A stretch of 64,000 bases of DNA from Lingula anatina. Lineage: Eukaryota; Animalia; Brachiopoda. The stretch's first letter is position 1. Each line of letters starts with the position of its first letter. The position numbers were made by a program, and so were the translations under genes. The DNA lies in contig CM120645.1 of assembly GCA_051362555.1 (NCBI GenBank), positions 2,108,001-2,172,000 of the forward strand. The letters are read 5' to 3'. The notes under the pieces were generated by a model. It was not told the origin of the DNA. It saw nothing but the letters and a program-made list of their open reading frames with translations, and ran no database searches. Shown one piece after another: positions 10,215-18,398 of this stretch.

Positions 10215-10905
10215 ATGGCAACAGCAATAGAGTCATACACCGGTTCCGACCAGGAAAATTATTTCCGTCTGTGCATTTTAATTGTAGATTATGCCCTGAA
10301 AGTCTTGCAACATGTTCTTCAGAAAGAGCTTGAATCAAACTATCCCAATTTATTTGACCCGAGCACGGGATTGTTATGTGGGGTGCTTGGTGATGGAACT
10401 GTCAGAAAGAAACTGTTTAAATTACCACGAGGAGTATTTAATAAGCAGCAAAAAGACCAACTGTATCCCGCTGGAAATCCCTCCACATCAGTAACTGTTG
10501 GTGATTTAGACATCACACTGACTGTTCTCTTGCTGAGAAACATCACAAAACTGGTAACCGGGTCCAATGCATGGGACAACCCCTCTGACAGCGATAGGTC
10601 AACGGAAGCCAAGATTGGTCGAGTTAAAAGATATCGGAATGTTGAGTATGCTCATATAAAAGAGACAGCAATCAACTTGGATGTTTTCCGAAAAAAATTC
10701 TCAGATCTCAAGTCCAGGCTCCTGGCTCTCTCTGGCAGGTACAGTGGTGAGGAATACGACGACATCTTGCACAGACCTCTTGACCCTGGTTTACTTAAGG
10801 AATACCAAGACGTTATGAACAAACTGTACAATAATGACAAAGAGGTGAAAGAGTGGATGATGGAGAATCGTGATATGCTCAATAAAATCGATTTAAGGAC
10901 AATAG
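10215..10905 (+). CDS. Copy 1 first coding exon: DZIP3/hRUL138-like HEPN domain plus coiled coil
   Basis: Motifs NYFRLCILIVD, QQKDQLYP, DLDITLTVLLLRNI, WD.P..D, and RVKRYRNVEYAH (HEPN Rx4-6H; R codon 10635, H codon 10653). Acceptor ends 10162, donor GTTGGT at 10906. Confidence 0.85.
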
Positions 10906-16900: not shown

Positions 16901-18398
16901 CAAGTGTAAGGTTCACAGTAACCTTGATGTTAAACACGAGGTAACTTTTCCACACAAAACAATTCAGGAGTTTTTTGCGGCAAAATACCTGGCGGGGACA
17001 TTAGACGAAAAGGTGAATAACATTTTAGATCAATTGTTGGAAAACTTAGACACCCCTGATAAACTATTCGACATGGATTTTGTGCTGCGCTTTGTGTGTG
17101 GGTTATCTAGGAGTGCAACTGGCAAAGTGCTACGTAGAGCGAAATCTCTTCAAGGCGAATTTGAGAAAGAAATATTTAAGCCTTATCTCAGGAACAGTCA
17201 TTTTCGCAGGGTTATCCAGTTGTGTAATGATATCCTTCTAGAACACTGGTATGCCCACTGTCCCCAAGAAACAGTGCTGCCCCTTGAGCTTATCTCCTGG
17301 CACAGGGTACTTTGCATACCTGGATCATTTCGTCACTCTGATCCCAGATTCCAGCAGGTTTTGTATGACAGTGTAGATAGTTTATTGTCCAGTCCTCAGA
17401 TATATTCTGGTATGCTGAAAGGTTTGATTGCTGTCCGTCTTGACAGCGACATGTTAGTTACAAAAATACCAGACGATATATCTACCAGAAGACAAGAAAT
17501 AGAGCACAAACTTTTATCTTTACTCAGAAAGTGTGACATGTTCGAGGAACTAGTAGCGGTACTTTGGCAGACTGAATATCACACATGTGATGATTGCACA
17601 TATACATTAAATCATGTTATATCAAAAGCTCCTAACCTTCAAACACTTGTAATAACTACAAATTACAGTGGAGCATTATCATCAATACCAAACCCTGGAA
17701 AACTGTTACATCTGGAGGTCAGTGACATAAATGTTCAAGACTGGCAGGTGATCCTACAGATGGGACACTTGGAGTGCATTAACGTAAGTGGCGGCCTATC
17801 AAGAGACCCACCTCCTCAACTGGGGTTAATACCTATTACCAGTCATGATTTAACTCGTATAGACATTAGTTTTACCCATCTTCGTGCCGTGGGTGTACAG
17901 CTTCTTGGGAGGAACCTTCATCATGTGCCAGGGCTGGAATATCTGACACTGGACTGTGTATTCAATAATGGACCCTGGTGTGGGCCTGACACGTGTACAT
18001 GTCCTAGGGGTGAAGATAACACAGACTATGACAGATGTCAGGATGTCTGTGAAGCCGTGTGTGAACTAAGCCAAGGTGTGATACACACCACTAAGCTGAA
18101 GTACTTCTCATTCAGTGTCAATGACTTGGGTCGGTACCACGGTATCACCAGTCCACTGATAGTATTGATTCAATCTCTCAGTACAGTGTCAGAGCAGACT
18201 GGAATGATGATTAATATGTCCTATAATCACCTGGGCAGTGTTGACCGCCTCAGTGAGCTGATAGAAGCCATTGTCAGTTCTTACCAGCATGTATCATCTT
18301 GGAATCTTCGGTTGAATGACCTTGAGGAGAGTCTCCCAACGCCAGGCGACAGTCTTAATTGTAAGGTGTCGCATGATCTTTTATATGTGAAAACCTGA
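10215..18398 (+). CDS. NLR paralog 1: HEPN(DZIP3-like)-coiled coil-Ser/basic linker-CARD-NACHT-LRR-like, spliced, about 1302 aa
   Basis: ATG at 10215 in gccATGg context. Exons 10215-10905, 11299-11367, 13237-13347, 14045-14098, 14984-15024, 15456-18398, all GT-AG, intron phases 1,1,1,1,0, giving one open frame. The same exons are conserved in copy 2. Confidence 0.85.
15456..18398 (+). CDS. Copy 1 terminal exon: CARD-NACHT-winged helix-LRR-like
   Basis: CARD-like segment LVENLRVEDII...QAFEFLRILPKCGPRAFETFVEVLRK. Walker A GKAGIGKT (15972-15995), Walker B LLVFDGYDE, sensor-1 ITTR, WHD FPHKTIQEFFAA, C-terminal LxxLxLxxN-like repeats. Phase-0 acceptor TTTTCCAG ends 15455. Confidence 0.93.
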   Translation, partial: APIMRPTHKNLLVKMRQMLVENLRVEDIIRDMVATNIFSNDNAEKVMAKETENDQAFEFLRILPKCGPRAFETFVEVLRKHNKIELADKLADKATAYSSKNQLASFYIKYMSQIQRLPWDPDDTMHLDDVFVNLQWVQEERKPAGTSSDPIRSYTSILHTKQGKRPKRILVRGKAGIGKTTFTQKMATDWANATLGLGECDEVLLRYKHVLIINLRSVQPGQTLKEAMETQITCSAENRKAVTDEVMQALDYDSEHVLLVFDGYDEYDINTSTEITDIIYRRQYQDVCTVITTRPWKAEELMNRRMMDDAYEITGLTEDNIAEYVAKFFNDKQKYDDYLALRSESYLKSLDVLRSIGKGLVGYLEEKKLMSLVRIPILLLFVCLMWQEDQQSDAKTDSLPASYTLLYKKLIQLLLRRRYGIRTQVEMEQSACVKNLEEETFISLGKLAYDGLVKPDGGLIFDEKDLQTIPDVNELYSLGLLSKCKVHSNLDVKHEVTFPHKTIQEFFAAKYLAGTLDEKVNNILDQLLENLDTPDKLFDMDFVLRFVCGLSRSATGKVLRRAKSLQGEFEKEIFKPYLRNSHFRRVIQLCNDILLEHWYAHCPQETVLPLELISWHRVLCIPGSFRHSDPRFQQVLYDSVDSLLSSPQIYSGMLKGLIAVRLDSDMLVTKIPDDISTRRQEIEHKLLSLLRKCDMFEELVAVLWQTEYHTCDDCTYTLNHVISKAPNLQTLVITTNYSGALSSIPNPGKLLHLEVSDINVQDWQVILQMGHLECINVSGGLSRDPPPQLGLIPITSHDLTRIDISFTHLRAVGVQLLGRNLHHVPGLEYLTLDCVFNNGPWCGPDTCTCPRGEDNTDYDRCQDVCEAVCELSQGVIHTTKLKYFSFSVNDLGRYHGITSPLIVLIQSLSTVSEQTGMMINMSYNHLGSVDRLSELIEAIVSSYQHVSSWNLRLNDLEESLPTPGDSLNCKVSHDLLYVKT

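Follow-up and report, generated by a model that had tools for sequence, protein, structure and literature searches.

A probable joined HEPN-CARD-NACHT-LRR receptor gene in the brachiopod Lingula anatina

The first of three tandem NLR copies in a window of 64,000 nucleotides (nt) from Lingula anatina (GCA_051362555.1, contig CM120645.1, 2,108,001-2,172,000, forward strand; all positions given here are those of the window) is a real and probably joined gene that places a HEPN domain in front of a CARD, a NACHT domain and leucine-rich repeats (LRR), and is a variant of the known HEPN-NLR type. New here are a symmetric phase-1 HEPN cassette that is absent from the third copy, and a single clade of Lingula HEPN domains that heads proteins of diverse kinds. 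The predicted 1302-amino-acid product of copy 1, in the order HEPN, linker, CARD, NACHT and LRR, may oligomerise on binding a ligand, recruit a CARD partner and pair its HEPN domains into RNA-cutting dimers, a reading of the whole to which we give a probability of roughly 0.45.

Does copy 1 encode one protein or two? The initial annotation proposed that apparently separate HEPN and CARD-NACHT open reading frames are joined in frame by four small GT-AG exons, and as a genomic reading this holds. At each of the five junctions the donor is followed by GT and the acceptor preceded by AG, pyrimidine tracts are present, and splicing the six exons (3909 nt, coordinates in the table; intron phases 1, 1, 1, 1 and 0) gives a single open frame of 1302 amino acids and a stop. 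A likely splice acceptor for the HEPN exon lies at 10163. We take copy 1 to start at 10215 because a hydrophobic first exon, sought upstream of copies 1 and 2 among 2102 six-frame peptides, was found in copy 3 only; the acceptor of copy 1 does not fit that exon in phase, and that of copy 2 does.

One argument for the join comes from the small linker exons, E2 to E5, and their homologues in the tandem copies. Lengths are 69/69/69 nt for E2, 111/111 for E3, 54/54/48 for E4 and 41/41/41 for E5, and all seven comparisons made with copies 2 and 3 find AG/GT, frame and open reading conserved, at 56-95% identity, the E5 homologue of copy 3 being 56% identical and still gap-free. Not one frameshifting gap falls in 433 exon nt, where the intron rate predicts 6.8 (from 34 such gaps in 2155 nt of alignable blocks, hand-picked from a self-alignment; P ~0.001, or ~0.01 for E3-E5 alone). 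A GT-AG path in frame could by itself be fortuitous, and this comparison makes chance in-frame joining unlikely. A pseudogene reading of copy 1 was rejected on the open frame, purifying selection and expressed relatives. The E3 donor, GTAAGA, is retained in copy 1 and in both copy 2 duplicates. Neither E4 nor E5 has a start codon, so that both need an upstream phase-1 exon. A peptide similar to E4 precedes the CARD of the relative P0004 (by eye). The RefSeq paralogues XP_013408965.1 (P0002) and XP_013379433.1 (P0010) are annotated as HEPN-CARD-NACHT proteins, in the order HEPN, E2-like, linker, E5-like, CARD, NACHT. Judged from these comparisons, it is likely that the six exons are spliced as one full transcript.

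For RNA reads, four of nine listed raw-read runs were mapped at 93% likeness. Run X7 shows expression of both large exons, at depths of ~14-16 in the HEPN bins and ~3-22 in the CARD-NACHT-LRR bins, and 22 reads pass the CARD acceptor upstream into in-frame sequence that, compared by eye, equals E5 in 23 of 30 letters. An E5-like exon is thus spliced to the CARD exon, and the expressed protein therefore reaches beyond the CARD methionine. Several observations weigh against the join. In none of the four runs is a read joint listed for any one of the five junctions, E4 is without coverage in them, and the HEPN exon is without depth in three of the four. The X7 reads derive from a different allele or paralogue: of 32 differences checked, 26 have the copy 2 letter (the 32 are a subset of the 40 listed, and 359 further ones lie beyond these). 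RefSeq splits one close locus into XP_013382037.1 (HEPN, E2 and E3; 293 amino acids) and XP_013382036.1 (CARD-NACHT), and another into XP_013389015.1 and XP_013389014.1, with consecutive accessions at both. XP_013392384.1, which equals copy 1 in 484 of residues 1-490 (~99% identity), starts at the CARD. Finally, E2, E4 and E5, of 13-22 codons each, show no excess of silent change. The single protein of the initial annotation remains likely from linker conservation and joined paralogues, but the closest loci are split in RefSeq.

Could HEPN and CARD-NACHT-LRR be neighbouring genes that are never co-spliced, acting as a linked pair or independently? The two split loci, the CARD-first XP_013392384.1 and the lack of an E3/E4 junction read in the four runs would fit, but E4 and E5 lack a start codon and yet keep their frame, the E3 donor is strong, and P0002 and P0010 are joined. 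Moreover, the phases in copy 3 are compatible throughout and link the hydrophobic exon to E2, E5 and CARD, which puts E2, the companion of HEPN, in a CARD-NACHT gene. We regard two separate genes as very unlikely. A locus with two products, a HEPN-only protein of 293 amino acids made by read-through of the E3 donor, serving as a free RNase partner or regulator, together with the long form, is improbable as well. XP_013382037.1 uses junctions 1 and 2, with an E2 peptide identical to that of copy 1 and E3 nearly so, and ends exactly at E3 donor read-through; as an independent model it confirms these two junctions and leaves E3-E4 as the link in question. XP_013389015.1 and P0128 terminate after E2-like sequence, and copy 1 has an in-frame stop three codons into the intron after E3, so that read-through closes the frame after GKN at 293 amino acids, and an AATAAA at 13370. 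However, read-through ends are a common artefact of automatic annotation, and AATAAA/ATTAAA occurs within 600 nt of all five donors, and copy 2 is without it at the matching site. We dropped the AATAAA after E3 as evidence of a transcript end, since such signals follow every donor. A short product would in any case be compatible with the long form existing too.

The HEPN exon of the joined gene encodes, by the features that can be tested in sequence, a member of the DZIP3-type HEPN family. It matches HEPN_DZIP3 (PF18738) with 132.5 bits against a curated cut-off of 27, over profile positions 4-144 of 144. The initial annotation had called the R-x4-6-H motif intact, and RNVEYAH in copy 1 and RNVDYAH in copy 2 are both present, the former with N directly after R and the spacing of 5 seen in 68 of 84 aligned homologues (each <=420 amino acids). 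Of these 84, 82 keep R141 and 80 keep H147, and the ratio of nonsynonymous to synonymous change (dN/dS) of the exon against copy 2 is 0.31 over 188 codons, which indicates purifying selection. The structural model is all-helical, with a predicted confidence (pLDDT) of 92.8. Among 48,161 chains its nearest neighbours are Csm6 (Z 7.7, root-mean-square deviation (rmsd) 3.5, 118 aligned) and AbiF (Z 6.9, rmsd 4.2, 146 aligned), with MtlR, Cas13, LsoA and RnlA ranked lower; all six are HEPN proteins. All of these Z scores are below 8, a range that the tool treats as possibly unspecific, and Foldseek with the HEPN model gave no match at E<=0.001, so that the fold comparison is suggestive; both results weigh against the reading of the whole. 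Against solved structures the single sequence found no HEPN match, and the profile found coiled-coil matches only, beyond the HEPN core. Also weighing against that reading, two of the six Lingula-type HEPNs that go with CARD-NACHT loci have lost the motif, P0002 by R>Q and P0130 by H>N (the others are copies 1 and 2, P0127 and P0010), and copy 3, a point missed in the initial annotation, and P0004 are without HEPN. No biochemical test of any DZIP3-type HEPN was found in the literature searched. Because the motif is lost in two of six and one paralogue is without the HEPN exon, the domain looks like an optional module.

The remainder of the protein is that of an NLR. Pfam matches all three of the families named in the initial annotation, HEPN_DZIP3 (E 1.3e-38), CARD (E 6.7e-13; 48.9 bits against a cut-off of 23.9) and NACHT (E 1.1e-20). 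In the model of the large exon, which was built from a 66-row alignment and has a mean pLDDT of 83.3, residues 4-96 superimpose on the Apaf-1 CARD with Z 17.5 and rmsd 1.1 over 93 aligned residues, and the top match of the whole is NLRC4 (Foldseek E 5e-25; Z 26.7, rmsd 12.5, 701 aligned). The NACHT motifs are intact: GKAGIGKT (Walker A), FDGYDE (Walker B), TTR (sensor-1) and the His of the WHD. Pfam LRR families give no match at E<=1 on the whole large exon, and LRR_4 reaches E 0.14 on the C-terminal part alone. The LRR named in the initial annotation is borne out in predicted structure: the model has alternating strand-helix repeats at exon residues ~618-950, residues 607-979 align with the LRRs of FBXL2 (Z 17.8, rmsd 4.2, 286 aligned), and the region aligns with FBXL17 (Z 19.1, rmsd 4.5, 311 aligned) and with the Skp2 LRRs. 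With NACHT, C-terminal LRR and N-terminal CARD, copy 1 is an NLR-family member by features testable in sequence and model.

How widespread is the tandem of HEPN and CARD before NACHT? A search of representative proteins returned 604 at E<=0.001, of which 150 were listed, six of them known Lingula models; all 71 of the other 144 listed representatives with >=350 amino acids were scanned with Pfam at thresholds of 1e-6 and 1e-5. Among these 71, 25 have NACHT and one has CARD (CAH1255554.1 of Branchiostoma), and a looser scan of 15 of them added one weak DED, in a protein without NACHT. The count is a lower bound, as many representatives may be single-exon calls that split a spliced tandem. By these sequences the tandem looks uncommon, and the initial annotation was right to single it out: beyond the Lingula models it is seen in one of the 71 scanned, in amphioxus.

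What might such a receptor do? In NLRC4, the LRR inhibits the receptor until activation leads to ring assembly. By analogy of fold and motifs, the LRR of copy 1 would probably hold NACHT closed until a ligand arrives, with NTP-driven assembly of an NLRC4-like wheel, and the clustered CARDs would quite probably recruit a caspase or adaptor. The HEPN would, on balance, be an active RNase that requires a dimer, and given that step it is somewhat more plausible than otherwise that oligomerisation would switch it on, helped by the low-complexity tether of ~95 residues. On their Ser/Arg/Lys-rich linkers the HEPNs would reach a local concentration high enough to pair and to cut RNA. RAZR, a bacterial HEPN RNase activated by ring assembly, is a precedent for the HEPN step (PMC13017515, accessible part).

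The HEPN of a joined protein could have a role other than that of effector. It could bind RNA as a sensor, serve as a decoy for viral RNase inhibitors or help the protein to dimerise, much like the integrated domains of plant NLRs, with the CARD alone signalling. That the domain is kept at CARD-NACHT loci where its motif is lost, and that copy 3 and P0004 do without it, would suit such a role, and the accessible part of PMC8662601 leaves sensor or RNase undecided. We nevertheless consider it unlikely: few residues of the family are kept as well as R and H, the domain stands at the N-terminus, where an effector belongs, and no CARD was found (E<=1e-5 or 1e-6) in 24 of the 25 scanned among the listed representatives with HEPN and NACHT, in which HEPN seems to be the effector. 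It is more improbable still that a joined precursor is cleaved in its Ser/Asp linker by a CARD-recruited caspase, releasing the HEPN as a downstream RNase so that the two outputs act in series. E3 encodes an exposed SDSDG that resembles a caspase site, and Lingula HEPN-caspase fusions exist (P0131, P0276); however, the sequence is not conserved, being SDSEG in copy 2 and SDSDD in P0127, and other paralogues have different linkers. Parallel outputs, from CARD and HEPN of one assembled receptor, are the preferred reading.

In a 28-row tree 12 Lingula-type HEPNs form one clade with support of 100/98, and this clade heads CARD-NLRs, a RIG-I-like helicase, an IIGP GTPase, a DEAH helicase and a membrane-CARD protein. 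The HEPN of amphioxus CAH1255554.1 falls with the amphioxus rows, and the amphioxus tandem likely arose independently. E2 accompanies the HEPN exon: its profile matches nine of 282 stored proteins, every one of the Lingula HEPN clade. The HEPN exon is a symmetric cassette, phase 1 at both ends, which the family gains and loses, so that it reads as an add-on effector on a CARD-NLR chassis. Taken with this symmetry and with the lack of the exon in copy 3, the distribution of the clade and the E2 matches suggest that HEPN and E2 travel together as a cassette, the exon phases being those read within the window. More ambitiously, HEPN exon and E2 could be a shuffled RNase cassette, set on CARD-NLRs, helicases, a GTPase and a membrane-CARD protein, with copy 1 a true dual-output NLR that combines caspase recruitment with RNA destruction and is tunable by exon skipping or loss; this we hold to be doubtful.

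Three relatives outside the NLRs, P0121 (XP_013399073.1), P0122 and P0123, are models of the RIG-I-like helicase, IIGP GTPase and DEAH helicase, with the HEPN motif intact; the HEPN-headed P0121 would be a self-contained RNA sensor-nuclease if its gene model is right. Other HEPN fusions (P0131/P0276, P0136, P0213, P0242) include Lingula HEPN-caspase and DED-HEPN proteins and an amphioxus HEPN-TIR, and in Xenia HEPN stands before an IRE1-like kinase-RNase.

Ranked by match to the large exon, the first ten relatives are without exception Lingula anatina models (53-89% identity), after which identity drops to ~30%. Copy 2 has the layout of copy 1 with E3 and E4 duplicated; a TAG at 48696-48698, missed in the initial annotation, would remove most of its LRR. 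The CARD-NACHT exon of copy 3 is interrupted by the end of the window, and its exon phases are compatible. Copy 3 would encode a membrane-anchored CARD-NACHT protein without HEPN, its hydrophobic exon (hydropathy 3.1, 19 residues) likely being transmembrane; membrane-bound NLRs are described as rare. This hydrophobic exon precedes HEPN in two of the 282 stored proteins, P0130 and P0010. XP_013392384.1 is copy-1-like and then copy-2-like from around HD2. The HD2 region (17000-17300) is the most divergent between the copies, with 58% amino acid identity and a synonymous divergence (dS) of 0.43 against ~0.1 nearby, and RefSeq relatives (P0001, P0003) switch affinity there, which suggests a recombination tract between paralogues.

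Table. Positions of the exons and domains of copy 1, of the other tandem copies and of neighbouring elements in the window.
Feature	Position	Strand	Basis or remark
HEPN exon, coding part (230 amino acids)	10215..10905	+	DZIP3-type HEPN, then long helix; phase-1 donor
HEPN R-x4-6-H motif, R141-N-V-E-Y-A-H147	10635..10655	+	sequence
Linker exon E2, 69 nt, phase 1-1	11299..11367	+	copies 2 and 3 have 69-nt counterparts
Linker exon E3, 111 nt, phase 1-1, Ser/Arg-rich	13237..13347	+	dN/dS 0.24 (36 codons)
Relic E3 duplicate	13463..13573	+	donor is TT; in copy 2 the counterpart (44815-44919) keeps GT
Linker exon E4, 54 nt, phase 1-1	14045..14098	+	two in-frame copy 2 homologues, 54 and 48 nt
Linker exon E5, 41 nt, phase 1-0	14984..15024	+	41-nt homologues in copies 2 and 3
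Large CARD-NACHT-LRR exon	15456..18398	+
CARD	15465..15743	+	Pfam CARD and Apaf-1 CARD structural alignment
NACHT nucleotide-binding domain	15957..16448	+	Pfam NACHT; then HD1, WHD with conserved His, HD2
Divergent LRR solenoid (~10 repeats) and stop codon	17286..18398	+	predicted model; below Pfam thresholds
Copy 2	38850..49793	+	HEPN exon 38850-39573, E2 39811-39879, E4a 41610-41657, E3a 44560-44670, E3b 44815-44919, E4b 45420-45473, E5 46313-46353, CARD-NACHT-LRR exon from 46782
Copy 3, without HEPN exon	60769..64000	+	hydrophobic exon 60769-60877, E2 61406-61474, E5 62135-62175, CARD-NACHT exon from 62624
Foldback element	18502..19436		449-nt arms, 97% complementary; short flanking direct repeat
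SLC26/STAS anion-transporter exons, candidate	~22500..25600	-	STAS E 1.2e-4, just under cut-off; other exons by eye
Tc1/mariner-type transposase, broken	35169..36063	-	DDE_3 E 4.5e-8, weak helix-turn-helix
Large repeated non-coding blocks	1..7600; 26000..34800; 53000..57000		65-97% identity

Around the NLR copies, the foldback element just 3' of copy 1 is absent from copy 2 and skipped in four X7 reads, and is likely a polymorphic non-autonomous transposon. The likely SLC26/STAS exons lie between copies 1 and 2 and converge on copy 1. A large repeated block stands ahead of each NLR copy; these blocks are probably segmental duplication units mixed with repeats.

Few NLR types are as common in invertebrates as HEPN-NACHT receptors, and in the papers searched their RNase activity is only predicted. 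The locus is a natural test set: on one chassis it has intact copies, paralogues with a dead motif (R>Q, H>N), a copy that lacks HEPN and perhaps a HEPN-only form. If HEPN is switched on by NLR assembly, copy 1 would be an animal NLR with its own enzyme effector beside the CARD, and, if true, this would link metazoan inflammasomes to bacterial sensor-nuclease (STAND) defence. A pitfall is that automatic annotation splits such genes and that Pfam misses their LRRs; with Dataset S5 of PMC13012124 giving 0 NACHT-LRR for Lingula, such receptors are probably undercounted for these reasons.

Fusions of HEPN and NACHT in invertebrates, which the initial annotation took as known, are widely described (PMC9646362, PMC8260672, PMC8662601, PMC13012124). 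The accessible parts of the first three report >50 HEPN-NACHT receptors in Pinctada (PMC9646362), 17-83 per species in anthozoans (PMC8260672, in Table 5 of which 'CARD' was not found) and occurrence in nine invertebrate taxa (PMC8662601, in the readable supplement of which 'HEPN' was not found). Lingula has 10 HEPN-NACHT and 11 CARD-NACHT proteins in Dataset S5 of PMC13012124, which has no column for the triple, and Asymmetron papers also describe HEPN-NACHT expansions (bioRxiv 2025.07.21.665930, accessible part; PMC13012124). Fusions of the DZIP3/hRUL138 HEPN to TPR, RING, ankyrin, CARD, NACHT, DEATH and LRR in animals, with a proposed RNase-L-like action, appear in the accessible part of PMC3710099, and fusions of HEPN and RIG-I-like receptors to TRADD-N domains in cnidarians and brachiopods in that of PMC8195603. 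Exon-based grafting of N-terminal domains on Lingula RIG-I-like receptors (PMC8998645) and a predicted Lingula NLRC-caspase-GSDME path (PMC11508797) are described in texts whose accessible parts have no occurrence of 'HEPN'. The HEPN-CARD-NACHT triple is nowhere described in the literature searched; Gerdol et al. 2018 and the pearl-oyster NACHT supplement, outside that search, might describe it.

RNase L and the IRE1 KEN domain belong with the RNases that are activated by oligomerisation. Copy 1 may, by its model, share a HEPN-like helical fold with the HEPN members of that group, RAZR, Csm6 and AbiF, which have a composite two-monomer site and are activated by assembly (PMC13017515, accessible part), but its HEPN is of another family, with another sensor and no sequence match to a solved HEPN, and its RNase activity is putative. 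With NLRC4/NOD-type receptors it has in common the CARD-NACHT-HD1-WHD-HD2-LRR fold; unlike NLRC4, to which it is ~17% identical with no orthology claimed, it has an extra HEPN and an LRR too divergent for Pfam. The tandem itself is already in public gene models, all uncharacterised. XP_013408965.1 and XP_013379433.1 of Lingula have the Pfam domain order of copy 1 and 68-74% identity over CARD-NACHT; the former differs by R>Q in the motif, and the latter has an extra hydrophobic N-terminal exon and ends before the LRR. CAH1255554.1 of Branchiostoma lanceolatum reads HEPN-NACHT-HEPN-CARD-NACHT and may be two fused genes. Closest in plan are the invertebrate HEPN_DZIP3-NACHT(-LRR) receptors of pearl oyster, anthozoans, amphioxus and Lingula itself, with which copy 1 shares an N-terminal HEPN with R-x4-6-H, NACHT, C-terminal repeats and tandem expansion, and to which it adds a CARD and an exon-encoded tether of 95 residues between HEPN and NACHT.

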